Source of the DNA: Oscillospiraceae bacterium
GTDB taxonomy: Bacteria; Bacillota; Clostridia; Oscillospirales; CAG-272
Direction of reading: 5' to 3'
Assembly: GCA_015063685.1 (NCBI GenBank)
Contig: SVTR01000003.1
Coordinates: 24,372 to 88,371 of the forward strand
Length of the DNA: 64,000 bases
The translations under genes were made by a program, and so were the position numbers. Below, piece after piece: positions 28,600 to 45,410 of the stretch. The notes beneath the pieces were generated by a model. It was given only the letters and a program-made list of their open reading frames with translations. It was not told the DNA's origin and ran no database searches. Numbering within the stretch: position 1 is the stretch's first letter; each line of letters starts with the position of its first letter.

Positions 28600-28711
28600 A
28601 CTTTTTTAGAGTTTAGGTTTTATTAACCCATGAGGAGATTAAATTTTTCTGTGAAATATGGCGAAAAAATCACTACGGTTTCGCCATCAAAAGAGTTTTT
28701 CGAGGTGACCT

Positions 28712-28834: not shown

Positions 28835-28853
28835 AATTTTGCTCCTTTTTTAA

Positions 28854-31800
28854 TCATTGTTTATAGATTAGGGCAGACTCACCATAATTATAAATGGCTT
28901 TCAAAAGCTCGCGTAACTCTTCATTTTCGGTATTTTGATGCTTTTGAATGTATGTATATACCGAGTAATTGACTGTTTGGCCTATCTGTTCGCCATCCTT
29001 CTTGATAACCGCACTGACCACATCATTAAACTCAGTAGCCTTAATACCGCAGAAAGAAAGATAATACTTACCATTTTTGTATGTCAGGTCCTCAAAGGTG
29101 TAGATTGTGGTACGTCCGTTAATGGCTACCTCAAAGGTATAAAGCGAGATATCCTTCGTTGCAGTGATGCCTAACAGTAATGTCATTTCACTGGAAAGCT
29201 CCAAGGTCGCACTGGCATATCTGATGTCGGGATCGACAGCTCCGATCAACTCTTGTTTGTTATAAGTTTCGTCTAATCTGTTAAAGTTACTGGGTGTAAG
29301 TTCTATGCCATCTGTAACGAGTGCATCAACCTTATAATTTTGATAAACCTGGGTTTTGGAACCATATACCAACAGATCGCTGACCATACGCTTCAAATTT
29401 TCATCATCCGGTTTTTGCTCTAAAAGATTGATACAATACTGACGAATACTGTAATCCAGGATACTGACACTTACCTCTTCTCCGTTAACCATTGCATAGA
29501 GAGTCGCGTCAATACGATCGCCCATTTTTTGGGGATTCACGTTAGAAAATGCGTAGCAGTATCTCCCCTGTTCATCCACTGTGTATGTGGTCACAACAGT
29601 CTCATTACCATTAAAGCTGAAGACCATGCGGGGATTGACAAAACCGTCAGGGACAGTTACGGCATAGATCACATTGATATTCTCCGAAAGAACAAGAGAC
29701 GCACCGTTGATCGCAAATTTTTTATACCCGCTCCCAAGTGCAAGCCTCACATCTTGCGTATTGATTCCCTTGGAAACTGTCACAGACTCGCTAAAGATTA
29801 CATGATTAGCTTTTATTACCGTCATATCGTAAGTGCCTACAGGAACATTTTCGAGGCAATACTCGGCATTTAATCCCTCTACGGTCACCGCATATGCCAC
29901 CTCTGTTTCACCATCATGCGTCAAGCGTACTACAATTTCCTCTTCTTCACCGATGACACTTGTGATAGTTCCGCTAAGTGTTCCGCTAATATAAGTATAG
30001 GGAACTCCCTCATTTTGGGCAAACTGTTCAGCATAGGTTCCACGAACGACATTCAAAACCGCCTTAGTGGAACCAATGAAAGCGTTGTGATAGATCTCGG
30101 AAATATTTTTGGGCATATACACATTAACCAAATCTGAACAATATCCCAAAGCCGCATATCCCATATGCGTTACGTTATCCGGAATTTGAACCTCACTCAA
30201 ATACCAAGGACCGCAAATCGCAGAAGTACCGATTCTAGCCAATTTGCTTCCCTCTTCAAATGTCATGCGTCTAATGTTATAACACTGATAGAAAGTACGA
30301 TCACCAAGCGCCGTGATATCCTTACCAACAACAACATCCTTAATTTTCATGGACAAAGTATCATCGCCCTTCAACCAAGGTCTGTTCTTGTAAGCAAGAT
30401 CAGGATTTCCAGTCGTGTCTACCTGCTCATAATCATAAGTATCACCTTCGCCGGAAAGAACAAAGGTGCCGTCAGCATACAGGATAAAGTATGCCTCAGG
30501 GCCCGCCAAGCCGGCAAGCAACACATCGGCTGTGGTAGATTCAGCAAATATGCCTTTGTCAAAGACACAAATTTCACCGCTGATGACGATCTCGCCATCA
30601 AAGGCAATACTGTTTGCATCAAAGAACGCAGGTCCAACATTGGCGATATGGTTGTAGCCGCTCACAGGCACGCCATTATCCAGATAACGAGTATCACCGT
30701 TTTCATCGGTCCACCATTCCGCAGACATAGGATACTTGTGTGCGCAAATACCGTTGGTACCGAAGTTGTAGTACTTACCTTCGATGAGCTGCACACCGGT
30801 ATACATGACACCGTCCTTATAGTAGGACTCCCCGTTCCAACCGTCGGCCATCACGACACCGTCAACGTAAGTCTTGCCGTCGGTATGAACACCGCTGAAC
30901 AGCTCGCCGCCACTGGTGCAAGCCAGCTTGCCGTCAACGAAATCATAGGTGTGAACGCCGGTTGCGGGAACGGTGGTACCCCAGTCAAGCACGGCGCCGC
31001 AACCTCCGGCGGTATCACAATCATGACCGTTTTCTGTCTTGGTTACGCAAGAACAACCTGTGCAGAATACGCGGCCAATATAGCCTTCTTCGGTACAAGT
31101 AGCAGCCTTATTCTGTGCTTCTCCCGCAGAATGGAGATGCCAACTGCTCTTATCATACTTAAGGAAGTATTCCTGCTTCTGATCAACAGTTAGTTTGCCC
31201 CACCAACAACCAATCTGGCGCTCAGTATCAACTTGGATCTTGTCACCGGAGAACATCTCGGTAGTGCCATCGGTAAATTCAACAAGACCTGCCAAGGGAT
31301 TAATAATGATATCGTAATTGTGACCTACGAATTCATTCCAGCATTCGTAAGGGTCGTACATGCCGTTTCCGTTCAAGTCACTGTCACCGCCGACAGAAGG
31401 AACGTATCCGGGATATATCTCCTCCTTGAACTCCCATGTCTGAACGGGGATGGAAACAAGTGCCTTTTCACCGGTTACTTCTACGTCACCGGTACGTTCA
31501 ATTGTAATATACGCAATGTTTTCTTTCGCAAGATCGGTGGTATAGGTTGCGGTGAAGCCATACAAAGTAACCATGTGGTCTAAGATCCAATAGTTAACGT
31601 TGTTCAAATCGAGAGTAAGGGATACCTTTTCAACTTTCTCTACGTTCTTTGCCACCACGTCCACCCAATACTGGGATCCGGTAGGAACCAAGGTTGCATC
31701 GGTTTGAGGTGCAAGCCAAATATCAGCATCGTTGTTTTCAGCCTGTACGCTGATCTTTCTGATTACGGAAGCATAGTTGCCTGCCATGTCGCAAGCGGTA

Positions 31801-34262
31801 AACTTAACGGTATGGACACCGTTCTTCAACTCGGTAGCAGGAACAGAGATAACCTTTCCGTTAAACGTATATTCAACTTCGTTTCCGTCAATATATACCT
31901 TGATGGAATTACTATCCAAACCGGTAGCATTTACATATTGGGTATTTTCAGCAACGTTTACCGCAAACCCAATGCTGTTATAGTTGGTAACAGTAGCGCT
32001 GTTGCGCTGGTTATTAAGATACTTGTCTTCGGCAGAAATAGGCTCAACATACTGAACCTCACCAAAGATAGGAGCATCTCTATCGTCACAAGCTTCAGAA
32101 TAATCTACGGTAAGATTATCCACAAAGAAGGTATTCATACCGGCAACACCGGGGGTCGTCTGCCAGTTGTATTCGCCGGAGGTACCGCCGTTAAGCTGAC
32201 AGCTGATTTCTATTCTGGCGCCTCCGCCTGCCGTCGGGTTTGCAGGATTCCACGCCTCGTTCTTCTTAAGCGTAATACTGTCATAACCACTAACGTCTAC
32301 CGCACAGTATCTCCATCCGGATTCCTCAAAATACAGAGAATCACCGTAGGTGATGGGGTAAGCATCGATACCGATTTCTTCTCCATTCTTGGTACCGGTA
32401 AAGCAGAATCTTATAGCCACGCTTACGGCATCCTTGGGGAAATATACCCAAACGCCGATAGATTTTGCATTTTCATAAGTTACGGTCTCGCCTGCCCAAC
32501 GCAAAGAAGTGCCAAGCCAGTTCAAAGTACCGTAGGTCGTATCGGAATAAACAGCACCGGCACCGTTGCCGTCGTGAACCATACCGGTAGCGGATGTTAC
32601 GGGATAGCTTTCAAGAATGTTGTTATACGCGTTAAGACCGGGTTTAGCATGGCTGCTATTCTTTCTCTGCTGAAGATGCTCTACATACCAACCCTCACCA
32701 AAGCCGTTTTCAAAATTCCAAACTACTTCAGATGCCTTACCGAATACTACTTGCATAGTTGCGGTAACATCGGGATCATGTGTCAAGGTAGCCGTGATAG
32801 AACCGCCGGTAACCGTAGGATCCTCTGTTGCGGTAATCACGTATCCGTTCAAGGTACCCATATTGTCGTTATCAAGCTTAACTTTAAAGTCAGAAGTCTT
32901 GCTTATAACTTCATAAATACCGTATGTAGCAGAAAGGGTAAAGCTGGCCTGCTGGCCTGTAGGAACGGTCAAAACAGACTGGCTGAAATGAATGGCATCG
33001 GGAATTACGATATTGATCTCGCAAGCACCGTATACTTTTCCTTCATACTCGATCTGTGCACTTACTGCACCGGTTTTGCCGGTAGAAACAAACAGACCGT
33101 CTTGATCAATGGTACCGAAGGAATCATCAGACAGTGTCCACTGAGCACCTTCGGGGATCTCTGCCGCACCACCCGTAAGATCAGCACCAATAGCCGAGAA
33201 CTGAACAGAGCTTCCGGGGGTAAAATACTCGCCTTCAGCACTTACATTTGCGCGAACAAATTCTCCGTCCGAGGGAGCTGTTGTGATAAAACAGATACCG
33301 GAGGTGGAGGGACGGAGACCACCGTCGGAAGGAGAGTTGTTGACCTTCAGCTCCTCACCGGGACGCTGAGATACGAAAGTGGAGGATCCACCACCGTCAC
33401 AGTTAGCCGCCCAAACGCAGCCTGCAGCGATCATAACCTCTGCGCACTCGTACATATTCATACCGGCGGAGAAGGGAGACTGACGACCGTCGTTAAGCAT
33501 CATAACGACCTGACCGTCCGCGGTAATACCCACAACGGAACGGGGAGCGGGGTTGTCTTTATGAGAAGCCTTGCTCTGGTTTACACCATCTTTTACAATG
33601 TATCCGCTGGATACCGGAATAACAGTGTCTTCCCAGCCGTCAAGGTCAACCGAAGTACGGATCTGTACCATTTCGAGCTCGGGGATATCGGCGGGTCTGG
33701 GGTTGCCGTTTTCATCAATGTCCTTGTTGATGACCACGCAGGTGGGGAAACCAACGTTGCCGTAAGCATAACCGCAGTTACCTGGGTCAAACATGATCTC
33801 GCCGTTCATCATCATGAAGCCGAGAGGTTCGCCTACACGGTCTGCAGGATAGCCGGTGTACCAAGACAAGCAGCAGTTCATCACACCGATGACTTCGCCG
33901 TCCATGTTCTCGTCGATCCAGTTCGCCTGATCGAGCATGGTGTCTGTTTGGTACTTAGATGTATCCATCTCGGAATACGTAGGAATGACACTTACATAGG
34001 AATGGTTCACATCAGCCTTCATAATATGAATAACCTGACGATAATTACCCGCATCGTTATTCAGAACGATCTCGGATTCGGAAATGCCGGGCGCATTATC
34101 CCAGTCCTTTTTGGAGATGAGGTTATAGTACTCATCCGTGCTTGTGGATGCATTGTGATTGTAATCAACACCTGCCGCAAACGGAATCACGGGCATCATG
34201 CCAATCATCATCACAGATGCAATTAAAAAAGCCAAAACGCGAATAAATCTCGTGTTTTTCAT
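28854..34262 (-). CDS. 1802-aa secreted multidomain phosphodiester glycosidase (NAGPA/DUF2233-like) with Ig-like, cohesin-like and BspA-like LRR regions
   Basis: Signal peptide; PRSVVGITADG...DGRQ...NCDGGGSS; LRR-like ITALGDRTFYQC / IPDNVTHMGYAALGYCSDL. Confidence 0.85.
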   Translation of the reverse strand: MKNTRFIRVLAFLIASVMMIGMMPVIPFAAGVDYNHNASTSTDEYYNLISKKDWDNAPGISESEIVLNNDAGNYRQVIHIMKADVNHSYVSVIPTYSEMDTSKYQTDTMLDQANWIDENMDGEVIGVMNCCLSWYTGYPADRVGEPLGFMMMNGEIMFDPGNCGYAYGNVGFPTCVVINKDIDENGNPRPADIPELEMVQIRTSVDLDGWEDTVIPVSSGYIVKDGVNQSKASHKDNPAPRSVVGITADGQVVMMLNDGRQSPFSAGMNMYECAEVMIAAGCVWAANCDGGGSSTFVSQRPGEELKVNNSPSDGGLRPSTSGICFITTAPSDGEFVRANVSAEGEYFTPGSSVQFSAIGADLTGGAAEIPEGAQWTLSDDSFGTIDQDGLFVSTGKTGAVSAQIEYEGKVYGACEINIVIPDAIHFSQSVLTVPTGQQASFTLSATYGIYEVISKTSDFKVKLDNDNMGTLNGYVITATEDPTVTGGSITATLTHDPDVTATMQVVFGKASEVVWNFENGFGEGWYVEHLQQRKNSSHAKPGLNAYNNILESYPVTSATGMVHDGNGAGAVYSDTTYGTLNWLGTSLRWAGETVTYENAKSIGVWVYFPKDAVSVAIRFCFTGTKNGEEIGIDAYPITYGDSLYFEESGWRYCAVDVSGYDSITLKKNEAWNPANPTAGGGARIEISCQLNGGTSGEYNWQTTPGVAGMNTFFVDNLTVDYSEACDDRDAPIFGEVQYVEPISAEDKYLNNQRNSATVTNYNSIGFAVNVAENTQYVNATGLDSNSIKVYIDGNEVEYTFNGKVISVPATELKNGVHTVKFTACDMAGNYASVIRKISVQAENNDADIWLAPQTDATLVPTGSQYWVDVVAKNVEKVEKVSLTLDLNNVNYWILDHMVTLYGFTATYTTDLAKENIAYITIERTGDVEVTGEKALVSIPVQTWEFKEEIYPGYVPSVGGDSDLNGNGMYDPYECWNEFVGHNYDIIINPLAGLVEFTDGTTEMFSGDKIQVDTERQIGCWWGKLTVDQKQEYFLKYDKSSWHLHSAGEAQNKAATCTEEGYIGRVFCTGCSCVTKTENGHDCDTAGGCGAVLDWGTTVPATGVHTYDFVDGKLACTSGGELFSGVHTDGKTYVDGVVMADGWNGESYYKDGVMYTGVQLIEGKYYNFGTNGICAHKYPMSAEWWTDENGDTRYLDNGVPVSGYNHIANVGPAFFDANSIAFDGEIVISGEICVFDKGIFAESTTADVLLAGLAGPEAYFILYADGTFVLSGEGDTYDYEQVDTTGNPDLAYKNRPWLKGDDTLSMKIKDVVVGKDITALGDRTFYQCYNIRRMTFEEGSKLARIGTSAICGPWYLSEVQIPDNVTHMGYAALGYCSDLVNVYMPKNISEIYHNAFIGSTKAVLNVVRGTYAEQFAQNEGVPYTYISGTLSGTITSVIGEEEEIVVRLTHDGETEVAYAVTVEGLNAEYCLENVPVGTYDMTVIKANHVIFSESVTVSKGINTQDVRLALGSGYKKFAINGASLVLSENINVIYAVTVPDGFVNPRMVFSFNGNETVVTTYTVDEQGRYCYAFSNVNPQKMGDRIDATLYAMVNGEEVSVSILDYSIRQYCINLLEQKPDDENLKRMVSDLLVYGSKTQVYQNYKVDALVTDGIELTPSNFNRLDETYNKQELIGAVDPDIRYASATLELSSEMTLLLGITATKDISLYTFEVAINGRTTIYTFEDLTYKNGKYYLSFCGIKATEFNDVVSAVIKKDGEQIGQTVNYSVYTYIQKHQNTENEELRELLKAIYNYGESALIYKQ

Positions 34263-34353
34263 GTTTTTTCTCCTTTTTGGTTTTAATGGGACAACGATAT
34301 ATATAAACCGACACAGTCGGAAAGTTTTCGGCTATCTATTTTGTTTTATGAAA

Positions 34354-35565
34354 TCATTCAATCCTCAACGCGGTGACTATGCTTTGATACGCCTTAGCTA
34401 CATGATAATGTTCCCAAAGATAATTTTTAGCACGTGCGGACATGCCTGTCGTATCTTGCAATACTATGGTTTGAATCAGCGAGGAAAATCTTTCAACATC
34501 GTTACTTTCACACCACCAACCGAAGCCGCCGTCCGTGATAACCTTCCCCACGTCGGTATTAGGATCGGTACAAGCCAAAACAGGTAACCCCGCTTGTATA
34601 TAGGGCAAAAGACGCGAGGGAAAATTGGGGATGGTGAAACGGTGATCCAAGAAAATCATACCCACGTCGCAGGCCGCCACCATACGATCGTAATCATCTT
34701 TTGGTATATGTTTAAGAAGTTTGACATTTCCCTGCGGCTCGCTTTTTATAAAAGTTTCCACTTTATGATATTCCGTACCACCGCCTATGAGTAAGAAAAA
34801 AGCTTTAGATTTTTTTTGATTTCGCAAACATTCGATCAAAAACGAGATTCCTTGAGGTTTTCCAAAATTCCCACCATACAAAAACACTTTTCTATCTTGA
34901 GGAATTCCATATCTATCCCGCATCTCCCTTTTAGCGGTGGGAGACAAGGACATATCCCTTGGTTCGATACAGTTTGGACACACGCTGATGGTATCCGGAC
35001 TTATCTTAGGGTTATGCTCTAGCACATAATTTACATTGGCCGAAGACATGCACCCAATATGATCCGAAACAGCATACAAATGCTCTTCTTTTCTGCGGAA
35101 ATAGCGATACAAGAGACCTTTCAAACCATTTTGAGCCATCATACCGAGATCTACTGCATTTTGAGGGAAGATATCCTTCAACAACAAGTAGGTTTGGGCT
35201 TGATCCCTTTTTTTGATATATTCAACCACACCAACCAACGTAATAGGCGGGGTGGAATACAGGACAAGATCAAAGTGAACCCCCGGGAAATACTTTTTAA
35301 TAGCTTTTTTGTACTGGCCTTCGATCTGAAGAGTGGTGACACCTTTTTCAATGCGGCCGCAGCCTGTGAGATTTCCAATCCGAACGTACAGCATATGCGC
35401 GCCGTGGTCATCCTTCAATTCTGTAGGAAGCCCCGTGTTTTTTTCCCTTTGGGATACCACATACACGGTGTGTCCGTGCGCTCGAAACTGTCGGAGCAGA
35501 TCTGGGTAAAGACTATACGCCTCTATGCTCTTCATTCGCCCGGTCGTCAAAAACAAAACATTCAT
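34354..35565 (-). CDS. GT4 glycosyltransferase (WbuB-like)
   Basis: KDIFPQNAVDLG, YGGNFGKPQG, NFPSRLLPY. Confidence 0.9.
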   Translation of the reverse strand: MNVLFLTTGRMKSIEAYSLYPDLLRQFRAHGHTVYVVSQREKNTGLPTELKDDHGAHMLYVRIGNLTGCGRIEKGVTTLQIEGQYKKAIKKYFPGVHFDLVLYSTPPITLVGVVEYIKKRDQAQTYLLLKDIFPQNAVDLGMMAQNGLKGLLYRYFRRKEEHLYAVSDHIGCMSSANVNYVLEHNPKISPDTISVCPNCIEPRDMSLSPTAKREMRDRYGIPQDRKVFLYGGNFGKPQGISFLIECLRNQKKSKAFFLLIGGGTEYHKVETFIKSEPQGNVKLLKHIPKDDYDRMVAACDVGMIFLDHRFTIPNFPSRLLPYIQAGLPVLACTDPNTDVGKVITDGGFGWWCESNDVERFSSLIQTIVLQDTTGMSARAKNYLWEHYHVAKAYQSIVTALRIE

Positions 35566-35596
35566 ATCAATTCATTCCTCAGCGCCAAAACGTGCA

Positions 35597-36892
35597 TCAA
35601 ATTTCAGAGATCGTTACCTTGAACTTTCCGTTTTTCCCGCACTCGATATGCGCGGTGTGTTCAATCGTTACACGGGCATCGGTGCCAAAAATATCTTTCA
35701 TGACAGCAACACATCTTTCGTCAATATCTGTCGCGACACCTTCCAGTCGGATGGTATAATCTTTGGGAGCGGTTTGAACAATCTGATAGCGATGTATTTC
35801 TACAAATTCTTTGAAACGGCCCATAATATTGGTTTCGCTCAATAGTGTTCCGTCTGTCTTATGCAACGCAGATATTTCACGGCCCTGCAGAGAAGCAATC
35901 TCGACACATTGGCCGTTGACAATTTTTTTAGCCACCGCCAAATCTCCGTTGGAATATCTGATAAAGGGTAGCGCTCTGTTGTTGAAGTCGGTAATGACAA
36001 CTCTTCCCATTTCGCCTTCTTCAACAGAAACATCGCTGTCCATCTTTAAAATTTCCACGAAAAACTGGGTTGTATCGACATAGAATATGCGATCATTGGG
36101 TTTTGTGATGGCAATGATAGCATTTTCAATCGAGGCATATCTGTTCAAAACGGGACACTTGAATAATTTTTCCAAGAGATCCCAAGTTTGGCTTTTCAAA
36201 TTATCACTATCCGCAATGATCAATTTGATGCCAAAATCGTAATTCTCATATCCCTTGCGAACGATATAGTCAGCCAATCTTTCAAGTCCCGAAGAATATG
36301 CCAGAATGATACTTAGTTTCTTATCCTTAACGATGGTCTGCACAATGTTCTCGAGCTTCTCATCGTTCAAATCCAGAATGCTGAGGGGCACCAAATTTTT
36401 TTTGAAGCATTCCCTCTTGGAGGCAGTGTGACCGAATCCCCAATTGCGAAGGTGAGCCCAACGGTCACCCACCCTCCAACCGATCTCTCTGTTTTTTAGG
36501 ATCAGCGCGGCTTTATGACAATGATCTTTCTCCTTATTCTGATAAGCCTTGAAGGGCGTACCGGAGGACCCGCTGGTATAGCAGGTCAGCAATACCGACT
36601 CGTTCTGATATTCACGGGATCTGAATGCTTCATAGTCTTTCTTCATAAGTTCTTTGTTCACAACAGGAAAGTCAGAAAGCTTCTCTGCCGTCACATTCTC
36701 ATACCACGGAACATTCGCCTTTACATATGTCAGGATCTCTGACACTTCGTCCTGATTATCGTAGCCTTTTTTCTTTTTTTCTTTGATGAGCTTGACTTTC
36801 TTTTTAACCGGACTTCCATGGAGCGCGTCTAACGCCCAGTAGGCCAATTCTCTGATGTTGCTCATATAATATTGCTCCCAATCTTTTATCAA
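35597..36892 (-). CDS. CapK-like / phenylacetate-CoA ligase family adenylating enzyme
   Basis: TSGSSGTP, NRYASIE, GRVVITDFNNRALPFIRYSNGD. Confidence 0.85.
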   Translation of the reverse strand: MIKDWEQYYMSNIRELAYWALDALHGSPVKKKVKLIKEKKKKGYDNQDEVSEILTYVKANVPWYENVTAEKLSDFPVVNKELMKKDYEAFRSREYQNESVLLTCYTSGSSGTPFKAYQNKEKDHCHKAALILKNREIGWRVGDRWAHLRNWGFGHTASKRECFKKNLVPLSILDLNDEKLENIVQTIVKDKKLSIILAYSSGLERLADYIVRKGYENYDFGIKLIIADSDNLKSQTWDLLEKLFKCPVLNRYASIENAIIAITKPNDRIFYVDTTQFFVEILKMDSDVSVEEGEMGRVVITDFNNRALPFIRYSNGDLAVAKKIVNGQCVEIASLQGREISALHKTDGTLLSETNIMGRFKEFVEIHRYQIVQTAPKDYTIRLEGVATDIDERCVAVMKDIFGTDARVTIEHTAHIECGKNGKFKVTISEI

Positions 36893-36935
36893 TTTCTTTC
36901 ATAAGCACCTTGTATCACAATCCAGTGCTCACAAA

Positions 36936-37580
36936 TTATTTGTACTGTTTTTCGCTTCTGATCTGCGCTAAATTGCCTTCTTTGTTTCCTGCCACACTGC
37001 TTTGAATACCCGTGCGCTTGAAAACAACGATCACCGTATTGAAAAGGATCTTCAAATCAAAAGCAAGTGAGATGTTACGCACATATTCCACATCATATTG
37101 GAATCGCGTTTCCCACTCAACATTATTTCTTCCTTTGATTTGCGCAAGTCCCGTAAGACCGGGGCGCACATCATGTCTGTGACGCTCTTCCTCAGTATAA
37201 TAAGGCAGATATTCGGGGAGCAGGGGGCGGGGGCCGACAAAGGACATATCCCCTTTTAGGATGTTCAAAAGTTCAGGGAGTTCATCCAGCGAGGTGGATC
37301 GCAACAGCTTACCGTATTTGTTCAATCGCTTGGCATCGGGTAAGAGCTTACCGTCCTTGTCCTTTGCGTTGCTCATGGAACGGAATTTTACAAGGCGAAA
37401 TATTTTTTCCTCCCCTGTCTTTTTGCTGATCTTACCAGGGCGGAGTTGGGTGAAAAAGGGGTTACCCTTCATCATGATCGCGCCCACGATGCTCAGAATC
37501 ACGAAGAGGGGGGAAAGCACGCACAGTGCTATAAATGAAAACAGTATATCAATCACGCGCTTGAAAAAATTCGCATACAT
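36936..37580 (-). CDS. Initiating phosphoglycosyl transferase (PglC-like), locus A
   Basis: KFRSM, SLDELPEL, GPRPLL, RPGLTGLAQ. Confidence 0.93.
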   Translation of the reverse strand: MYANFFKRVIDILFSFIALCVLSPLFVILSIVGAIMMKGNPFFTQLRPGKISKKTGEEKIFRLVKFRSMSNAKDKDGKLLPDAKRLNKYGKLLRSTSLDELPELLNILKGDMSFVGPRPLLPEYLPYYTEEERHRHDVRPGLTGLAQIKGRNNVEWETRFQYDVEYVRNISLAFDLKILFNTVIVVFKRTGIQSSVAGNKEGNLAQIRSEKQYK

Positions 37581-37675
37581 ATATGTACCCTCGAAAAAAT
37601 ATTGAAATAACGGTTAAAGCAAGATAAATATGACTCTACGTCGAATACAATGGTGGTTCTTATAAATATACTCTC

Positions 37676-38746
37676 TTACTTTACTACGTCGAAGATCTGT
37701 TCACTTTCCAGAACAATGGGCTCTACGTCCACGTCGCGGAGGAACACGTATGGCTTATCGTAATGGTAGAACGGAGCACGCGCCACGTTATCGCAATGTC
37801 CATCTTCCATGATCTTGATGGTATCCTCGATCAAATCAAATCCAACTTGGGCCATCACACCCGTATATGCCATATGGCGGATGTTCACCTCTGTAACCTT
37901 CATATTACCATTCCGATCCTCTTTCAAATCGAAGGAAAGAATGCCATGGGCAGTCACACCGAGTTTTTTCTCAAGATATTTGACACATCTATCGCAAAAA
38001 TCATTGATCCTGTCTTCATTCAAGAAGCGTCCGAAGTGGGTATTTCCCGTTACACGAGAAGGTGCGACCTTTGCCATAACGTATTCAACGCATTCGAGAG
38101 CTGCGCCCTTAACGTATTCGCCATTGTAATATAGCATTTGATTGGCTAAGTGACGACCGGTTAGAAACTCGCTGACCGTAAATTCAGGAATCTGAGCATT
38201 GATGAACAGCCAGCTCTTATAACTGTCGATATCGTCCAGCCTCAAAGAGCCCAATCCGCCGGTTCCTTCCGTGGCGCGGATCCAGCAAGGAAAGCCGATC
38301 AAATTTTCCACGTCCTCATATCGGGGATCGTCTTTTGTCACCTTGATGGTCTTAGGGATAAATTCGGTACCCTCAAGCAATTCGGCCATAATGGACTTAT
38401 CCTTCAAGGAAGCCGACAGCAGTCTACTTCCCATGAATACACGACAAGGATATTTTCCGTTTTGCTCGAAATACTCTCCCCACGCGACAATTTCGCTTTC
38501 CGGCTGAACAAAGGCATAATCAATGTGCTCATCCATAACCAGCTTTTTCATCCATGGGAAATATTCGGGAGATGTGCAACGGGGGCATATGAAATATTCA
38601 TCCAGCAATCCATCCATAAAAAAGCCAAGCGCTTTTTTTTCAATATCGCATCCGATGAGTCTATAACTCGGGTGATTTTTTTTGATAGTTTTAGCGATGG
38701 ATCGGGGGGTTAATCCGCCTATTCCCGTAATCAATATTGTTTTCAT
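37676..38746 (-). CDS. ATP-grasp domain protein (carbamoyl-phosphate synthase-like)
   Basis: ILITGIGG, GFPCWIRATEGTGGLG, SEFLTG, VTEVNIR. Confidence 0.75.
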   Translation of the reverse strand: MKTILITGIGGLTPRSIAKTIKKNHPSYRLIGCDIEKKALGFFMDGLLDEYFICPRCTSPEYFPWMKKLVMDEHIDYAFVQPESEIVAWGEYFEQNGKYPCRVFMGSRLLSASLKDKSIMAELLEGTEFIPKTIKVTKDDPRYEDVENLIGFPCWIRATEGTGGLGSLRLDDIDSYKSWLFINAQIPEFTVSEFLTGRHLANQMLYYNGEYVKGAALECVEYVMAKVAPSRVTGNTHFGRFLNEDRINDFCDRCVKYLEKKLGVTAHGILSFDLKEDRNGNMKVTEVNIRHMAYTGVMAQVGFDLIEDTIKIMEDGHCDNVARAPFYHYDKPYVFLRDVDVEPIVLESEQIFDVVK

Positions 38747-38755
38747 TTTTCCTCC

Positions 38756-39811
38756 TTACATCTCCACCCGAGTGGACAGCTCTAACGCGCGGGATAGCGC
38801 AGATATCTGCATACGCATTTCATCCGTGCCATATCTTTGATCGCACACCAACGATATTTCACTTCTGCTATACCGCGTTTCCCTGTTGAGATAATTGCGA
38901 TTCACAGGCCAATGACAAGGACAATAAACATTGCTCTTGACTAGTTCCAAATGAATGAAATGTCTTTTGTTTTCATTCACGATAATCGGTACAAATAAAG
39001 GGCAATCCTCTTCCTCGATATCATGATAGAGCAATTGAATATCATATGTCTCCGATAGGGCTTTCACTTCATCCATGAGCAGTTGCGCGTTGGCTCGGCG
39101 TGTTGCCCTTAATGAAGCCGAATCGGCGGTCAGCATGATTTCGATCTCGGAATCTCGGGTTTTAAATCCCTCATATTCATTATGTAAAAGCTTGTTTGCC
39201 AATGCGTACAGGTCTAAAAAATTCTGTTTTTCTCCCTCGGAAAATTTAATATATTTTTCTTTTAGTATCGCGGCCTGTCTCCAGGCATCTAGATACACGC
39301 TGTATTCTGTTGTGCTTTCGGGTACGGTAAAACCGTTTTTATTATACACAACAGCACAAAGAGAATCAAACCATTTTCTGTAACTCACAATGATATAGTC
39401 GGCTAATTCGTATGTTTTGGCATACGAAAACGCCGTTTGCGTGGCATCCACCACCAAAAGTTTTCCTTGCTCCTTGCACTTTTGGGAAAACGCCAATGTG
39501 TCTTTGCTGATAAAGCCAAAATAATCTATGGCCAATACTGCATCGACATCATCAGCGATTTCGACATGGTTCAAATTAAACGCGTCATAAAAAGATACTT
39601 CCAATCCCTGCTCCATAAAGGGACGTATCATGGAGCTACAGCAGTAGTCCGGAACAAGGATACTTCTTGAGGTATTCTTCAGTTCATTAGCTATCAAACC
39701 CAATCCCGTGATTCCGGATACAAGATATCTGTGAGGATAAACGCTGAGTTTCTGATACTCGTTCTTCCCTTTAGTCACGGAATTATGATAAAATTCACTA
39801 CCAACTTCCAC
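38756..39811 (-). CDS. Divergent PLP-dependent (DegT-like) protein
   Basis: MEVGSEF, PDYCCSSM, DYFGF, DATQ, SYRKW, CDQRY. Confidence 0.7.
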   Translation of the reverse strand: MEVGSEFYHNSVTKGKNEYQKLSVYPHRYLVSGITGLGLIANELKNTSRSILVPDYCCSSMIRPFMEQGLEVSFYDAFNLNHVEIADDVDAVLAIDYFGFISKDTLAFSQKCKEQGKLLVVDATQTAFSYAKTYELADYIIVSYRKWFDSLCAVVYNKNGFTVPESTTEYSVYLDAWRQAAILKEKYIKFSEGEKQNFLDLYALANKLLHNEYEGFKTRDSEIEIMLTADSASLRATRRANAQLLMDEVKALSETYDIQLLYHDIEEEDCPLFVPIIVNENKRHFIHLELVKSNVYCPCHWPVNRNYLNRETRYSRSEISLVCDQRYGTDEMRMQISALSRALELSTRVEM

Positions 39812-40392
39812 TACATACCTCCAAATAACCGCAAGCCAAAGCTTGAATCAACCAATTTTGTTTCGCATGATGAAAAAGCTGACCAAATCACACCGTTCGC
39901 CATTTTGACGCACCGGCTTCGCAGCGTTTCTTCATTTGTGAAGCCACAGCTTTTGAACAATGCTATCAATGCGCGGTTATACGAAAGCACGTGTACTGTC
40001 ACGCACATTAATTCAAGGGTATCGAAGCAGTATGACAACGCCAACATAATGCTGGCTTTTCCTATACCCTTGCCATACGCGGATTTGTGTAGCTTGATGT
40101 TTATGCCTGCAGATAGAGTCAAACTGTCAATACTTGAAACGATCACCGTTCCCTCCGACAGGCCGTCATGCTCCACCATGAATCGTTTCACATTCTTCTC
40201 AAGCTTGAGCTTCTCCGGCCATTGCATTTGTTCCCGAAGCATTACGATTTGGGGTGTCTCTACCACACATTTGGCAATATCTAAATCAGTATTCAGCTCC
40301 ATCAAAAACTCCGCATCCTCAGCTTCAATGCTACAAAAAAGTATGCACTTTTCGTCATTTTTCAAAAGTGCTGAAAGATTTTCCATTTTCAC
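39811..40392 (-). CDS. RimJ/RimL-type GNAT N-acetyltransferase, probably frameshifted near the C-terminus
   Basis: YGKGIG, VLSYNRALIALFKSCGF; the expected tail NGERCDLVSFFI lies in an alternative frame at about 39903. Confidence 0.7.
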   Translation of the reverse strand: MKMENLSALLKNDEKCILFCSIEAEDAEFLMELNTDLDIAKCVVETPQIVMLREQMQWPEKLKLEKNVKRFMVEHDGLSEGTVIVSSIDSLTLSAGINIKLHKSAYGKGIGKASIMLALSYCFDTLELMCVTVHVLSYNRALIALFKSCGFTNEETLRSRCVKMANGVIWSAFSSCETKLVDSSFGLRLFGGM

Positions 40393-40393
40393 C

Positions 40394-41533
40394 TTAAAAG
40401 GAAGATCGAATCACGTCCATAACGTAGTTCTGCTCTCCCTCGGTCATTTTGATATCCGAGGGGAGACACAGGCCGCGGGCAAAGATATCCTCGTTGACAG
40501 GCTTGTCCTCGACGGATACAAAATCGTAGCCTTCAAAGACAGGCTGCATATGCATGGGCTTCCAGATGGGACGAGCCTCCACGTTGTAATCGTTCAGGGT
40601 ACGGATGATGTCCATGGGATTCACGTTCACCCCTTCGTTGACCGTCATGCAGGACAGCCAGAAGTTGGGCTTGCTGTCGGGTAGATAAGGGTTCATGGTC
40701 ACGGGCAGATTGGCAAGACCCTGCTTGTAGCGGCGGTAGATGGTTTCCTTTTTGTCGCGGTGCTCCTCCAGATGCCTGAGCTGACCGCGGCCAATGCCCG
40801 CCACCACGTTGGACATACGATAGTTATAGCCGATCTCATTATGCTGGTACCACAGGGCGGGCTCGCGGGCCTGGGTAGCCCAGAACAGAGCCTTCTTGCG
40901 ATCGGCCTCGTTGTCGCAAAGCAGCATACCGCCACCCGAAGTGGTGATGATCTTATTGCCGTTGAAGGAGAGCACGTTATACTTTCCAAAGGTGCCGCAC
41001 TTCCCTCCCCTGTATTCGGAGACCAGAGCCTCGGCAGCATCCTCGATGAGGATGGCGTTATGACGCTTGCAGATCTCTGTGATCTCCTCCATCTTGGAGG
41101 GGGTACCGTACAGATGTGCCAGCATGACCACCTTGGCGTCGGGATATTTTTCAAAGGCTAATTCCAACGCGCGAGGATCCATGTTCCAGGTCTCCCGCTC
41201 GGAATCAATGAACACCTGCACGCCCCCCTCATAGGACACGGGGTTGACGGTGGCGGCAAAGGTCATGTCGCTGCAAAGCACGATATCACCCCGCTTGACG
41301 CCTGCCAGCTTGACCGCCAGGTGGAGCGCTGCCGTGCCTGCGTTGAGGCACAGGGCGTGGAAGTCCGACTGATTTTCGCCGTTCAGGTATGCATTCATCT
41401 CGGCTTCAAAACCGTCGCAGTTAAAGCCCAACGGGGCGATCCAGTTGCGGTCAAAGACCTCCTGTATGTAGGCCATCTCGTCTCCGTGCATGGTTGGTGT
41501 GGCCAGGGGAATTCTATGTTCATAGGTTTTCAT
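40394..41533 (-). CDS. DegT/DnrJ/EryC1/StrS sugar aminotransferase (PglE-like)
   Basis: GTAALHLA, EDAAEA, SFNGNKIITTSGGG, GYNYRMSN. Confidence 0.95.
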   Translation of the reverse strand: MKTYEHRIPLATPTMHGDEMAYIQEVFDRNWIAPLGFNCDGFEAEMNAYLNGENQSDFHALCLNAGTAALHLAVKLAGVKRGDIVLCSDMTFAATVNPVSYEGGVQVFIDSERETWNMDPRALELAFEKYPDAKVVMLAHLYGTPSKMEEITEICKRHNAILIEDAAEALVSEYRGGKCGTFGKYNVLSFNGNKIITTSGGGMLLCDNEADRKKALFWATQAREPALWYQHNEIGYNYRMSNVVAGIGRGQLRHLEEHRDKKETIYRRYKQGLANLPVTMNPYLPDSKPNFWLSCMTVNEGVNVNPMDIIRTLNDYNVEARPIWKPMHMQPVFEGYDFVSVEDKPVNEDIFARGLCLPSDIKMTEGEQNYVMDVIRSSF

Positions 41534-43713
41534 ACGGTGATTGCTCCTGTTTCTTTACGCGCGTTGATAGGGCTTGCTGTCATAGATGCCTGCAAAAGCA
41601 CTGAGCGGCTACCCGCCATGCGATTTCCGGTCTCCCAAAGCATCCCGATAGCATTCAGCTTGGAACGCCGTTCGTTGGACATATCCTTTTGGCCATTCTC
41701 TCGTTGCCGCCGGATCCACCGACCGAGACGGCACCCGTCGGGTGTGGTATAAGCAACCGGCACATCCAAGTGTCCATGCTTTTTTTGATATTCACATGCC
41801 GCAGCATATGCTTTTTCCCAGGCAATATCATGCTTATTGCCCCACAGCATGCCGATCTTATTCAAACGATTTATCTGCTCCTCGGACATCTTTGCTCTTT
41901 TGTTGTTGTTTTTTTGGGAAGCACGCAATCCAAATATCCACGCCCCCAGTCTGATCCCGTCCTCATCCACGTAGTTTGCGGGAACATCCAAGTGTCCATG
42001 AGCCTTATGAAATTTAACCGCGGCGTAATAATTGCGCTCCCAAAGGTAGTCCACCGCGCTCCAGACCATGCCGATAGCCTCCAGCGCCTCGATACGCTCA
42101 GGAGTCAGGTAGGCGGCCTGTATACCGTTCTTGTAGTAAGTACGAAGATTGGCAATCCAAGCTCCGAGATTGACACCGTGGTAGTTCTTCTCGGAAATGC
42201 TCACCATCAGGTCTCCGTGCTCGTCAAAATAAGCCTTGGCGGCGGTGTAGTATTTTTCCCAGGCTACGTCACGGGCGCTTTCCCAGCGCATACCGATGGA
42301 TTCCAACTTGGCGATCTGCTCATCGGTCAGAAGTCCCTTTACCTTCCCCCCACGGACAAGGCGCTGAGTGGTCAGCCAGGTGCCCAGGGTATAACCCTCT
42401 GGGGTGACATAGCGCTTGGGGACGTCCAAATGGCCGTTTTCCTTATAATATTTTTCTGCCGCCTCGAACATCAGCTCCCAGGAGGCGGTGAGGGTATCGT
42501 TCAGCTTGTCAAAAAGCACCATACAATCCCTGACCTCATCCACCACCTTGAAATGCTCATTGATAATGGCGTCATCCATACCCAGGGAGCGGTAGTAAGC
42601 GGTAGCGATCTGCATCTCCTCCTCCACGGCGTCAATGCTGTAGAGATTTTCAATGTTGAGAACGATATCAAAGATCACGGCGCTGGTCTTTTTGCCCGCA
42701 GCCAAAGCTCGGCCGATTTGCTGTTTATAGATGATGGGGGAAACCGTGGGACGAAGCAGGATCACGCCGCTCACGTCGTCCACGTGAATACCCTCGTTGA
42801 GCATATCAATGCAGAACAACAGCTTCAGGTGCTCGCTGTTATCCGCCTTGAAATCCGCGAAGGCACGGCTGGTATCGGGATCGTCGGAGTAGGCTTTATA
42901 GATATGGGGATGACGGTCAACGCCCGAGAACCACAGAGATGCCATGTCGGCCATCTCACAGAGATGATCGTAGTTGGCGCAGAAGACCAGGTACTTCCCC
43001 GCTTTGTCCGTCATGTGCTTTTCAAAGATCTTATCCAGACCGTCAGCCTTGTCCAAGGCGCGGCGCAAGGCTTCCAGATAGGCCTCGCCCTCATCCCGCA
43101 CGGCCTTACTCTTGGCGGCACGGACACGGCGCTCGTACTTTTCCAGATCCTTTTGGTAGGAAAAGACGGACAGCACATATTTGGGTGGGCTGAGGATACC
43201 CCTCACGATGGACTCGCCCAAGGTCATTTCGGAAGCTACACAGCCGTCAAACAGCTCGTCGGCCATGTTGCGTTGGTTATCCAGATAGCGAATAGCGGTG
43301 GCAGACAGGCCCAGGATGGGTACTTCGGGGTGGCTTGTCAATAGCGCCTTGACTCCCTGTCCCCACATTTCGGCACCGCAACGGTGAAATTCGTCCAGGA
43401 TAATATAGTCCGCACAAATACCGGCGAGCTCGTCCTCGGTGAGATTCATGAGCTTGGCGTAGGTGTAGAATTGGATATTTTCGGGAACGTATCCGCCGGT
43501 AGCAGCCTTGAGATTCTCCAGCTGAGTCTTGAAGATATACTCGGAGGGAGACAACCAGCAAACCGTAGCCTGGGGGTGCTCCTCGCAGAGCTTGAAACCG
43601 ATAAAGGATTTGCCCGTTCCCGTGGGATGGATCACTGCCGCTTTGCCGGTTTCGGAGAGCATAGCGACAGCGGCTTCATATGCGGTTTGGTTGTGCTCAA
43701 ATAACGCAATCAC
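41530..43713 (-). CDS. SF2 (DExH) helicase with four C-terminal helicase-associated (HA) repeats
   Basis: PTGTGKS, LDEFHR, LSAT, MLNEGIH, QQIGR; four W-E-x-Y...HG-L-VP...LG-W repeats; RBS AAAGGAGG; ATGA overlap with the aminotransferase. Confidence 0.92.
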   Translation of the reverse strand: MIALFEHNQTAYEAAVAMLSETGKAAVIHPTGTGKSFIGFKLCEEHPQATVCWLSPSEYIFKTQLENLKAATGGYVPENIQFYTYAKLMNLTEDELAGICADYIILDEFHRCGAEMWGQGVKALLTSHPEVPILGLSATAIRYLDNQRNMADELFDGCVASEMTLGESIVRGILSPPKYVLSVFSYQKDLEKYERRVRAAKSKAVRDEGEAYLEALRRALDKADGLDKIFEKHMTDKAGKYLVFCANYDHLCEMADMASLWFSGVDRHPHIYKAYSDDPDTSRAFADFKADNSEHLKLLFCIDMLNEGIHVDDVSGVILLRPTVSPIIYKQQIGRALAAGKKTSAVIFDIVLNIENLYSIDAVEEEMQIATAYYRSLGMDDAIINEHFKVVDEVRDCMVLFDKLNDTLTASWELMFEAAEKYYKENGHLDVPKRYVTPEGYTLGTWLTTQRLVRGGKVKGLLTDEQIAKLESIGMRWESARDVAWEKYYTAAKAYFDEHGDLMVSISEKNYHGVNLGAWIANLRTYYKNGIQAAYLTPERIEALEAIGMVWSAVDYLWERNYYAAVKFHKAHGHLDVPANYVDEDGIRLGAWIFGLRASQKNNNKRAKMSEEQINRLNKIGMLWGNKHDIAWEKAYAAACEYQKKHGHLDVPVAYTTPDGCRLGRWIRRQRENGQKDMSNERRSKLNAIGMLWETGNRMAGSRSVLLQASMTASPINARKETGAITV

Positions 43714-43752
43714 TACGTTCCCTCCTTTCGGAAAATTTGAAGCATGCAGGGT

Positions 43753-43777
43753 ACAACATAACGGCGATTATGTTGTT
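43753..43777 (+). repeat. Left inverted repeat (IRL), tyrosine-recombinase crossover site
   Basis: ACAACATAA-CGGCGA-TTATGTTGT(T); exact reverse complement of 44026-44050. Confidence 0.95.
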
Positions 43778-43960
43778 GAGCAAATCAAAGATTGGGAAAT
43801 TATCCCAAACGGGGGATACAAAAAAGGCATAACAATAAGACCTGGCACCAAATTTTTCCAAAAAAATGGTACAGGCTTCTTTTGCTATGCCTTAGGAAAA
43901 AGGAGTATGAAAATCTGTTTGGGAATTTATGACAAAATCTTATAAAATTCTCAAAAACTA

Positions 43961-43989
43961 TTGCAATCTTTTATGGGATATGCTATAAT
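43961..43989 (+). promoter_or_regulatory. sigmaA promoter with extended -10 inside the switch
   Basis: TTGCAA-17bp-(TGc)TATAAT. Confidence 0.88.
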
Positions 43990-44025
43990 ATGTTGAATGA
44001 TGGGTTATTATGTCTTTTTATATAA

Positions 44026-44050
44026 AACAACATAATCGCCGTTATGTTGT
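44026..44050 (+). repeat. Right inverted repeat (IRR)
   Basis: (A)ACAACATAA-TCGCCG-TTATGTTGT. Confidence 0.95.
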
Positions 44051-44058
44051 TGATATTG

Positions 44059-44083
44059 AGTCGGGGGAAATCCCGGCTTTTTT
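44059..44083 (+). terminator. Intrinsic terminator just outside IRR
   Basis: AGTCGGG-GGAAAT-CCCGGCT followed by a T-tract. Confidence 0.65.
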
Positions 44084-44085
44084 GT

Positions 44086-44925
44086 TTATATGATCAGCTT
44101 CATGAGCTTCATTTTACGCTTATGGGTCTCCCCCGTGGTGACGGTATAGATACGGGTGGTGTTGATACTGGCATGTCCCAACAGATCCGCGAGCGTGACG
44201 ATATCCTTCTGCATGGCGTAAAAAACGCGAGCAAACAGGTGTCGTAAATTATGGGGAAAAACCTTGGTCGCCCTCACCTTTGCGGCGGTGCATAGAGATT
44301 TCATGGCGCGCCAGATGGCTGTCCGATCCAGGGGACGGCCGTGCTTCGTGCGAAACACCGCGCCTTCATCAATATTGAATTTATCTATATATGACAAAAG
44401 CTTTTTCCGAAGCTCCGGCACAAAAAAGATCCGCCTCGTTTTTCCTTTGCAGTTGACCCTCGCTTCTCCCCGTTTCACTGCCTCTACCGTAACGTATGCA
44501 AGCTCGCTGACGCGTATGCCTGTTCCGCAAATGGTTTGCAGGATCAACGATAATCGTCGGTTTCCTCGTTGCTCGGCTGTTGTCACCAAACGCATATATT
44601 CCTGTCGGGTCAGCTCTCTGCTCTCCGAGCAGAAGGCATCCCGTTGCACACGGAATTGCTTGACCACCAGTTCATGCCATCCGCAAAAGCGAAAGAAGCT
44701 GTTGAGTGCCGCCAGCATGGAATTGGCGCTGGTGGCGGTGTACTGCTCCGTGAGCGAATTTTTGTAGGCGAGCACCAAGGCCTTGTCCACGGGAGCGCCG
44801 TTGACGTAAGCCGCAAAAGCCCGCACGTCACGGGTGTATTTTTCTATGGTGGCGGGGCTTTTTTCTTCAAGGCGAAGATGATTTTCAAACAATTGTTGTA
44901 ATTTCATGCTGATGTGATAGATCAT
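44086..44925 (-). CDS. Tyrosine recombinase (XerC/D-like; putative invertase)
   Basis: All catalytic motifs present: GIRVSEL, KGK, HNLRH, LGH, TRIY; 279 aa; RBS AAGGAGG. Confidence 0.95.
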   Translation of the reverse strand: MIYHISMKLQQLFENHLRLEEKSPATIEKYTRDVRAFAAYVNGAPVDKALVLAYKNSLTEQYTATSANSMLAALNSFFRFCGWHELVVKQFRVQRDAFCSESRELTRQEYMRLVTTAEQRGNRRLSLILQTICGTGIRVSELAYVTVEAVKRGEARVNCKGKTRRIFFVPELRKKLLSYIDKFNIDEGAVFRTKHGRPLDRTAIWRAMKSLCTAAKVRATKVFPHNLRHLFARVFYAMQKDIVTLADLLGHASINTTRIYTVTTGETHKRKMKLMKLII

Positions 44926-45197
44926 AGCATCCTCCTTGCTTCTTTATACTTATACTATTTTACATCATGCGGCTCAAAATGCAAAAGCCATTGCTTTTTT
45001 TACTGTGACAAATTCCCATTTATATTTTTCATCAAACGGCTCACAATAGTAGCAGAGAACGCAAGACGGTGAAAAAGTCGGGTTGAAAAGACAGTTGCCG
45101 CCCTGTGGGCTCGATGATATAGATAGTCCCAAGTGGACAAAACGCCTTCCCACATCAACGGGGCGGCGCTTGAATGAATGAAATAGGAGTCAAAATT

Positions 45198-45410
45198 ATG
45201 GCAAGCAATAAGACCCTTGTTCCCCAGGCCAAGCAGGCTATGGAGCAGTTCAAGATGGAAGCAGCAAACGAAGTCGGCGTAACCCTGAATCAGAAGGGCT
45301 ACAACGGTGAGCTCACCTCCCGTCAGGCCGGTTCTATCGGCGGTCAGATGGTTAAGAAGATGATCCAGTCCTACGAGAACGGTCTGGCAGGTCAGAATCA
45401 GAACCAGTAA
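45198..45410 (+). CDS. ssp: Alpha/beta-type small acid-soluble spore protein
   Basis: KMEAANEVGV...LTSRQAGSIGGQMVKKMI; RBS AGGAG. Confidence 0.95.
   Translation: MASNKTLVPQAKQAMEQFKMEAANEVGVTLNQKGYNGELTSRQAGSIGGQMVKKMIQSYENGLAGQNQNQ

Follow-up and report, generated by a model that had tools for sequence, protein, structure and literature searches.

A candidate promoter-inversion switch with an adjacent Xer-like recombinase before a surface-polysaccharide locus of an uncultured gut Clostridia bacterium

Described promoter inversions and the locus on SVTR01000003.1

Promoter inversion in the capsular polysaccharide loci of Bacteroides is carried out by the recombinases Mpi and Tsr, and phase-variable capsules are central to how these bacteria cope with phages and host immunity. 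The fim switch of Escherichia coli, which controls a surface structure, consists of an invertible promoter element of ca. 300 bp with adjacent genes for the tyrosine recombinases FimB and FimE. Phase variation is far less known in the Clostridia of the guts of animals and humans, which are abundant and for the most part have not been cultured. Here, a stretch of 64,000 nt from the contig SVTR01000003.1 (assembly GCA_015063685.1, Oscillospiraceae bacterium, positions 24,372 to 88,371), referred to as the window, was analysed around a short intergenic segment that lies between a tyrosine recombinase gene and the first gene of a polysaccharide cluster. We regard it as highly probable that this locus is a promoter-inversion ON/OFF switch of the 25-kb surface-polysaccharide cluster in an uncultured gut bacterium of the class Clostridia. 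Promoter inversion before surface-structure genes is of a known kind, and the window is a new, well-supported example from a large and little-studied family, concrete and testable with its defined recombinase, two sites, one promoter and 25-kb polysaccharide operon.

In a study of the hCom2 gut community (PMC11892184), inverton group 139 comprises 33 invertons, 32 of them from the class Clostridia, and is accompanied by invertase group 35, a tyrosine-type recombinase/integrase which is encoded near nearly all members and is not regulable by the inverton itself. Its examples, from Clostridium sp. D5 and Intestinimonas butyriciproducens, span about 255 nt with repeats of 14–26 nt, and sequence reads of the group gave orientation shifts across culture passages (PMC11892184). 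Group 139 probably represents the same family as the window switch, likened by description only: size, class, adjacency and recombinase type agree, and the available text of PMC11892184 makes no mention of a polysaccharide target, of dif-like sites or of likeness to Xer proteins. Small inversions have been reported as frequent in Clostridia (PMC5903667). An earlier note on this DNA, made from the sequence alone, named Bacteroides as the best-characterised case of capsule promoter inversion; a rarity of such switches outside Bacteroides would be overstated, since Clostridia invertons that have a tyrosine recombinase gene beside them are on record (PMC11892184).

The Bacteroides capsule loci resemble the window in having an invertible promoter before a multi-gene surface polysaccharide locus, ON/OFF heterogeneity and several loci per genome. 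However, in B. fragilis a single distant serine recombinase, Mpi, flips many promoters, whereas the window has a dedicated and adjacent tyrosine recombinase. Phylum and repeats differ as well, and in place of the UpxY/UpxZ pair (PMC11685472) the first gene of the window locus encodes a helicase with HA domains (helicase-HA). Capsule promoter inversions of Bacteroides are cited also in PMC5903667 and PMC11602134. The fim switch is alike in size, adjacency and surface target, but its repeats differ, and the window recombinase scored just 24.7 bits (against 221) and 27.8 bits (against 222) with the FimB/FimE-type invertase models NF007370 and NF007371, respectively, and falls outside that family.

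Within Clostridia, the RecV switches of C. difficile (cwpV, flgB and others) share with the window the tyrosine recombinase and the short invertible segments, and are located upstream of surface or motility genes (PMC5903667, PMC7446863, PMC2784873). RecV is one enzyme for several dispersed sites (PMC5903667), whereas in the window family each switch comes with a separate recombinase and a separate core sequence. Mycoplasma Xer1 (vpma locus of M. agalactiae) is likewise an Xer-type recombinase connected to surface variation by site-specific inversion (PMC2268961, PMC5634654), but it shuffles lipoprotein genes behind a single promoter, when in the window a promoter cassette would flip before a fixed operon. 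A dif site consists of two 11-bp arms and, between them, a 6-bp central region in which strand exchange takes place, and the single-recombinase Xer modules (XerA, XerH/difH, XerS/difSL) have, like the window, palindromic arms, a 6-bp centre and a gene beside the site (PMC5357621). These modules have one site per chromosome and act in dimer resolution, whereas the window has two inverted sites 274 nt apart, an arrangement suited to inversion. In literature searches, neither a dif-like site grammar nor an affinity to Xer proteins was found described for Clostridia invertons, although the supplements of PMC11892184 may contain the motif; the same searches returned nothing on the size of the family, on a polysaccharide target led by helicase-HA, or on a series of live and fossil copies in one genome. 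PMC12823448 likewise contained no relevant statement.

Recombination sites, recombinase, promoter and controlled genes

The repeat scan identified a perfect inverted repeat of 25 nt (100% complementary, copies 248 nt apart), the two copies of which are the left (IRL) and right (IRR) recombination sites (Table 1). Both sites are near-palindromic and dif-like, with a 9-bp arm, an asymmetric 6-bp core and a second 9-bp arm, and since CGGCGA, the core of one, is the reverse complement of TCGCCG, the core of the other, the sites are in inverted orientation. The pattern ACAACATAA-N6-TTATGTTGT, with at most three mismatches, gave exactly two matches in the window (0.01 expected), and two or more matches occurred in none of 100 shuffles of the window. 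In the genome searched (2.72 Mb, 57 contigs, 93% complete) there were no perfect copies of the pattern beyond these two, and one unrelated match with two mismatches was located on another contig. As in an inverton, inverted repeats bound a short intergenic segment, an intact site-specific recombinase gene adjoins this segment, and an internal promoter, identified by consensus match, could serve a flanking gene in just one of the two orientations.

Table 1. Coordinates of the switch, its neighbouring features and its decayed copies (numbered from the first letter of the window).
Feature	Position	Strand	Remarks
Invertible segment	43753–44050		298 bp including both sites; site-to-site 274 nt, inside the family range of 205–378 nt
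Left recombination site, IRL (distal from recombinase)	43753–43777		9-bp arm, core CGGCGA, 9-bp arm, +1 nt of repeat
Right recombination site, IRR (proximal to recombinase)	44026–44050		core TCGCCG on + strand
Predicted switch promoter TTGCAA-17-TATAAT	43961–43989	+	consensus match with TG extension; directed at recombinase 3′ end (OFF for operon)
Predicted intrinsic terminator	44058–44079	+	between IRR and recombinase stop; 9-pair stem, T run
Xer-like tyrosine recombinase, 279 aa	44086–44925	-	intact open reading frame; Pfam, NCBIfam and structure matches
Promoter-like site TTTGCA-17-TAAAAT	44957–44985	-	upstream of recombinase gene; consensus match only
Helicase-HA gene (first controlled gene), 727 aa	41530–43713	-	ResIII/Helicase_C helicase with four HA domains; GTG start preceded by AGGAGG
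Co-directional polysaccharide genes	18745–41533	-	small gaps between genes
Fossil 1, locked ON	15531–15861	-	promoter copy (15719–15747), decayed site, then remnant of helicase 5′ end
Fossil 2, locked ON	9622–10009	-	promoter copy (9622–9729); relic of recombinase-upstream region (9953–10009)

The gap from IRL to the GTG start of the helicase gene (43713) is 39 nt (43714–43752), and that from IRR to the end of the recombinase open reading frame (ORF) at 44086 is 35 nt (44051–44085). The earlier note had described the perfect 25-bp repeats, their palindromic arms and the inverted 6-bp cores as the repeat and pattern scans now give them, and its layout was right, when its distances of 40 bp (IRL to gene) and 36 bp (recombinase to IRR) are each to be reduced by one. 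Its further statement that the right site would gain 12-bp arms after inversion is arithmetically correct from the sequence, but the suggested unequal favouring of the two states is without support, because the bases changed by inversion lie outside the family-conserved part of the arms, at positions conserved in less than 50% of the family.

The recombinase matched PF00589 (Phage_integrase) with 85 bits (cut-off 27.1, E-value 6.6e-24), which places it among the tyrosine recombinases, and the N-terminal SAM-like domain PF02899 with 36.7 bits (cut-off 22.3). Residues R138, K162, H225, R228, H251 and Y260 were invariant in all 17 aligned sequences (the recombinase and 16 homologues), and these columns we take to be the catalytic R-K-H-R-H/W-Y set of tyrosine recombinases; the adjacent gene was thus correctly named in the earlier note as that of a tyrosine recombinase. 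The best NCBIfam matches were XerA (147 against 220), XerD (121.3 against 329.6) and XerC (119.6 against 335.15), all under the equivalog cut-offs, and hence the protein is Xer-like and no equivalog member. The closest solved relatives were XerA (4a8e, 2.9e-21; 5hxy), XerD and XerH. The likeness to dif proposed earlier is borne out by these family and structure matches as well as by the layout of the sites. Only two PF00589 genes were found in the 93%-complete genome, i.e. the switch recombinase and an XerC/XerD-like gene on contig C37, which scored 218 and 208 bits with the XerC and XerD models, against 120 and 121 bits for the switch recombinase, and is therefore the likelier housekeeping Xer. 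From the fixed adjacency of gene and sites in 85 of 104 surveyed loci (described below), we infer that the switch recombinase acts on these sites.

The switch promoter was the best of four promoter-like matches in 43400–45400. Located on the + strand, it is directed away from the minus-strand operon starting at 43713, and the promoter scan agrees in this with the TTGCAA-17-TATAAT reported previously between the repeats. It is paralogous to two further promoters of the window, in the decayed switch copies here called fossils 1 and 2, which stand directly before minus-strand polysaccharide genes (15719–15747 and about 9650–9700). The region of the terminator (44020–44095) folds with -23.8 kcal/mol (z -3.26), and the terminator would end OFF-state transcripts before antisense entry into the recombinase gene.

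Some candidate elements of the segment were rejected. The core of the switch promoter matches a consensus that precedes a tRNA-Ala gene of the congeneric genome G003, and the conserved promoter spacer was accordingly dismissed as a mark of a special sigma factor or regulator; with the identical -35/spacer/-10 consensus before a tRNA-Ala gene, the switch promoter appears to be the ordinary strong promoter of the lineage. A minus-strand hairpin within the switch (43808–43792), considered as a blocker of read-through, was dropped due to its weak folding (-8.3 kcal/mol, z -1.35). The sole match to known RNA families was BsrG with 14.3 bits against a gathering score of 55 (E-value 0.52), taken as chance.

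Three elements around the promoters were observed in addition. In all three window promoters (43990–44010, 15690–15718, 9630–9660), as well as in two copies of the congeneric genome G006 (L036, L044), the predicted transcript begins, downstream of the -10, with a conserved stretch of about 20 bases (ATGTTGAATGATGGGTT and variants). This leader is not conserved in other promoters sharing the -35/-10 consensus, is without an Rfam match, and may be an element specific to these polysaccharide loci. A 25-nt element at 43910–43934 (containing TTGGGAATTTATGA), upstream of the -35 of the switch promoter, has a 76% inverted copy at 45004–45028, upstream of the recombinase promoter, and similar copies upstream of both fossil promoters; it may represent a shared regulator site. 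A small hairpin with a T run (15641–15654, minus strand; weak, 5-pair stem), a possible attenuator, directly follows the decayed site of fossil 1 within its leader.

The genes before which the switch is placed form a Wzx/Wzy locus. After the helicase-HA gene follow genes encoding a DegT aminotransferase, GNAT, ATP-grasp, a Bac_transf initiating transferase, an acyl-CoA-ligase-like protein, GT1/GT4 transferases, an 1802-aa protein with NAGPA and LRR_5 domains, Wzy, two Wzx proteins and UDP-glucose dehydrogenase. The assignment is based on the presence of Bac_transf (3.1e-58), Polysacc_synt (twice), Wzy_C and GT1/GT4 genes in one cluster, and the polysaccharide operon claimed beside the switch is confirmed by it. 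Among the Pfam matches of the scanned locus genes (two genes had no match) there were no chain-length or export components, at which no search was aimed. The locus ends near 18745, where a strong hairpin (18625–18649) separates it from convergent small ORFs. Internal terminators numbered 22 against 16.4 in shuffles, which is no signal above the shuffles, and none was convincing; internal promoter-like matches in 26000–43800 numbered 31 against 30.0 expected. With neither signal above shuffles, it is plausible that the whole 25 kb is one transcription unit.

The HA domains (PF03457) of the helicase scored 266.7 bits. Homologues of helicase-HA were present in three of 61 related genomes, i.e. 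the window's own, G006 (82% identity) and G030 (70%), and in each case the gene heads such a polysaccharide locus, next to a switch or a promoter. A helicase with four HA domains is an odd leader gene for a polysaccharide locus, and no paper linking the HA domain to polysaccharide loci was found in the literature search; the protein may act on transcription of the long operon.

Evidence for inversion and alternative explanations

Related loci were obtained from a search for recombinase homologues (E-value ≤1e-30) among 61 genomes, including the window's own, and from a scan of species-representative genomes. The locus survey (n = 104) comprised 23 loci of the former, 80 loci of the latter (the best 80 of at least 598) and the window. 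Left out of 30 related-genome loci were L020, L026, L027, L033 and L034 (contig ends), L028 (29% identity) and L004 (the window's own).

Direct comparison of related loci revealed inverted interiors. In L021 and L023 the flanks are colinear with 94.6% and 88.2% identity, and the 248-nt interior between them is inverted with 93.5% identity. Interiors inverted between colinear flanks were also found in L008/L056 (91.8%), L085/L091 (96.4%) and L056/L060 (84%), and in looser pairs. In the same genus as the window, contig C40 of genome G006 carries a promoter, the conserved leader, a site with the core TCGCCG, a ribosome-binding site and then the helicase gene, which is the ON arrangement, and it aligned with a score of 309 to the in-silico flipped window and 244 to the assembled window. 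The opposite orientation in related genomes, whose absence would have counted against the switch according to the earlier note, was found both in this orthologue and in the family pairs. The helicase-HA gene of G030 likewise follows a switch, with a different core and a recombinase of just 54% identity.

The fossils add to this a record within the window. In fossil 1, the switch interior (43848–44050) matches 15861–15658 in reverse, and the helicase 5′ end with the left site (43624–43773) matches 15531–15678 directly; with the helicase flank as reference, the interior runs opposite to that of the live switch, and the copy is therefore in the ON configuration. The flipped window aligns colinearly to fossil 1 over about 360 nt with a score of 290, against 131 for the assembled orientation, and the copy precedes a second polysaccharide gene set (Bac_transf at 14762–15400). 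In fossil 2, the promoter region 43910–44019 matches 9729–9622 in reverse and the recombinase-upstream region 44940–44993 matches 9953–10009 directly (86%). This is an ON copy as well, with the interior inverted relative to the recombinase-upstream flank, and the recombinase and both sites lost. On the basis of the two fossils, the ON arrangement existed in the lineage of the window, and the decay of two sister copies to fixed promoters means that freezing of the switch happens in this lineage.

Part of the window DNA is contained, as contigs, in 24 metagenome runs, from which X1–X4 were compared with the switch region, at the level of contigs, in which minority variants drop out. In X1 (possible source of the genome), X2 and X4, one single contig each extends across both sites in the assembled OFF orientation with 0 differences. 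The assembled orientation is therefore not an assembly error, and OFF is real and dominant in these three samples. In X3 no listed piece spans the switch: 43753–44055 is covered by a 308-nt contig whose 5 leftmost letters could not be placed on the left flank, and the contig that follows has its first base precisely at 44026. Logan contigs are built from 31-letter words, and two of the three contig limits fit a 31-letter-word graph with a second junction beside the 25-nt repeat; the left-flank contig ends at 43738, not at 43777 as a pure inversion graph predicts, with 43739–43752 without listed cover. The limits are a weak hint of a second junction. A joint from 43392 to 43583 in X2 (side 32) was rejected, as it lies inside the helicase gene on a contig with 3 other letters over 44 bases, and probably comes from another organism.

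Several observations weigh against the promoter-inversion reading. Neither a flipped form nor a strand-changing joint was present in the contigs of X1–X4, and the metagenome-contig scan returned no locus of the same species (six loci, 46–64% identity). Contig C40 of G006 starts inside the switch and covers neither the distal site nor the recombinase, and may be a locked ON copy; the best recombinase match in G006 is just 51% identical and is located elsewhere in the genome. The switch promoter is predicted from a consensus match, and the counts of internal promoter-like matches leave room for internal promoters in the operon. For the best interior promoter in the family (always near one segment end), a crude consensus score of our own gave the target direction for 17 of the 85 loci and the recombinase direction for 52, with 16 ambiguous, and the genomes behind this count are related to one another.

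Both orientations are nevertheless seen in the family, in the G006 orthologue and in the fossils, when within the population of this organism OFF alone occurs in contigs. Inversion of the segment is strongly supported by the comparison of family, orthologue and fossils, and flipping in living populations of the organism we infer from the same sequence comparisons. From the phase-variable locus assembled OFF that was claimed earlier, inversion and the OFF state stand, and variation at the population level, with no flipped contig, is kept as presumed.

The uniform orientation of the bridging contigs (X1, X2, X4), with no joint reported, and the decay of two sister copies into fixed promoters would suit a frozen switch, i.e. 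an inverton architecture with no meaningful flipping in this strain and a locus that is silent or driven by another promoter. We consider this improbable, as no mismatch has arisen between the 25-nt repeats, the recombinase gene retains an undisrupted reading frame and its complete catalytic set, and the orthologue in the congeneric G006 shares the core but has the opposite orientation; the fit of the X3 contig limits to a second junction argues weakly in the same direction.

According to the promoter-inversion reading, the 279-aa Xer-like recombinase would act like Xer proteins at dif: it would bind the palindromic arms of both dif-like sites as dimers, synapse the sites, and exchange strands inside the 6-bp cores, which are identical and asymmetric. 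With cores inverted relative to each other, the outcome would be a flip of the 298-bp segment. In the assembled OFF state, the strong sigma-A-type promoter would fire toward the recombinase gene and its transcripts would be halted by the terminator. In the ON state, transcription from the flipped promoter would cross the left site, enter the helicase-HA gene and continue over some 25 kb of Wzx/Wzy genes, with a predicted 5′ untranslated region of about 94 nt. Identity of cores within a pair and their difference between cassettes may confine each recombinase-site pair to its own switch. The preponderance of OFF in consensus assemblies (52 versus 17 of 85) fits a costly or antigenic product made by a minority of cells.

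The same preponderance of promoters toward the recombinase, together with the convergence of the OFF promoter on the recombinase 3′ end, could instead indicate that the OFF orientation is itself functional, for instance in antisense control of the recombinase gene or as feedback on switching. Such a two-way switch appears very unlikely, with a strong + strand terminator between IRR and the recombinase stop and with an OFF majority expected also for costly or antigenic surface structures, and it would be compatible with an ON/OFF role for the operon. Finally, a non-regulatory origin as a chromosomal dif or a mobile dif-module/IMEX-type element, with the recombinase as housekeeping Xer or element integrase, is hardly credible in spite of the dif layout, the Xer-like protein and the inverted dif-like sites that bound modules on Acinetobacter plasmids (according to titles and abstracts), since the C37 gene has the higher XerC/XerD scores, the switch recombinase gene occurs in just 24 of 61 relatives with up to 7 copies per genome, the sites are always inverted pairs around a promoter-sized segment beside the gene, and orthologues differ by orientation instead of presence or absence.

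Cassette family and further observations on the polysaccharide loci

Besides the 24 genomes with recombinase homologues (up to 7 matches in one genome), at least 598 stretches of species-representative genomes encode a relative of the recombinase (598 of the 600 stretches listed). The best 80 of these at least 598 stretches were all from Clostridia metagenome-assembled genomes (MAGs) of animal and human guts, labelled as Oscillospiraceae, Acutalibacteraceae, Ruminococcus, Lachnospiraceae, Christensenellales-like and others. Two sites with reverse-complementary cores were located 3′ of the recombinase gene in 85 of the 104 loci, and most of the other 19 were cut by a contig end. In these 85 loci the first site starts 13–93 nt (median 34) after the recombinase gene, and the second 205–378 nt (median 262) further. 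The family consensus of the site is ACATAAT-nnnn-ATTATGT, extended to TACAACATAAT on the interior-facing arms.

The 85 loci contained 55 different cores, none of them palindromic, and the window core, which begins with C, is in a minority state (8 of 85). As the arms are common to the family and the central bases cassette-specific, several switches could coexist in a genome without cross-recombination. Cores differed between two switches of one genome in all four readable cases (G054, G033, bin116, G030), but private cores were not accepted as proof of orthogonality, since with 55 cores among 85 loci such a difference is expected by chance.

The target genes nearly always read away from the switch, and include Listeria-Bacteroides-repeat and collagen-repeat proteins, lipase, VWA, ABC transporter, M23 peptidase, S26 peptidase, PqqD and TetR. 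Contig ends within 600 nt downstream of the recombinase gene were found in 16 of 80 loci, and upstream in 7 of 80, an excess that fits assemblies breaking at a heterogeneous switch.

Taken jointly and tentatively, these data may expose a very large and mechanistically undescribed family of self-contained gut-Clostridia cassettes, in which an Xer-derived recombinase gene would be followed, at most about 35 nt on, by two dif-like sites around a promoter segment of ca. 245 bp; the cassettes would have been shuffled before unrelated surface or secreted gene sets, and the live and fossil copies would record a promoter becoming constitutive. In the survey the cassette is present in hundreds of species, before diverse surface-protein, lipase, VWA, peptidase and transporter genes. 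The simple site grammar of shared arms and private cores would ease finding switches by sequence and scoring them in metagenomes, and the cassettes are of possible use as compact orthogonal inversion tools. As a warning, a MAG consensus shows the majority orientation only, and contigs often break at such switches.

In some loci, two to three tandem copies of one site were observed, about 30 or 63 nt apart (L006, L008, L015, L024, L030, L048, L050, L053, L056, L059, L060, L063, L066). Inversion against alternative partners could there give more than two states or different leader lengths. The contig of L061 (JAZSNT010000060.1) terminates in a 93-nt inverted repeat, by which the sequence doubles back out of the switch into the 3′ end of the recombinase gene; chimeric paths of this kind are taken by assemblers if the two orientations coexist.

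Between the switched locus and fossil 1 (16537–17824, minus strand), a sigma-70 region-4 protein (196 aa) and a DUF4367 protein (238 aa) are encoded, which may be an ECF sigma/anti-sigma pair; no link of this putative pair to the switch or fossil promoters was found, and those promoters look sigma-A type. Within the operon, the 1802-aa protein (28854–34262, minus strand) combines a phosphodiester glycosidase (NAGPA) domain with BspA-type leucine-rich repeats, and may be an enzyme that is anchored at the cell surface and switched together with the polysaccharide. A 2.68-kb block of glycosyltransferase, Wzy and glycosyltransferase genes is 97.5% identical between the switched locus (23910–26586) and the downstream locus (4534–7210), which indicates recent duplication or gene conversion between the polysaccharide loci.

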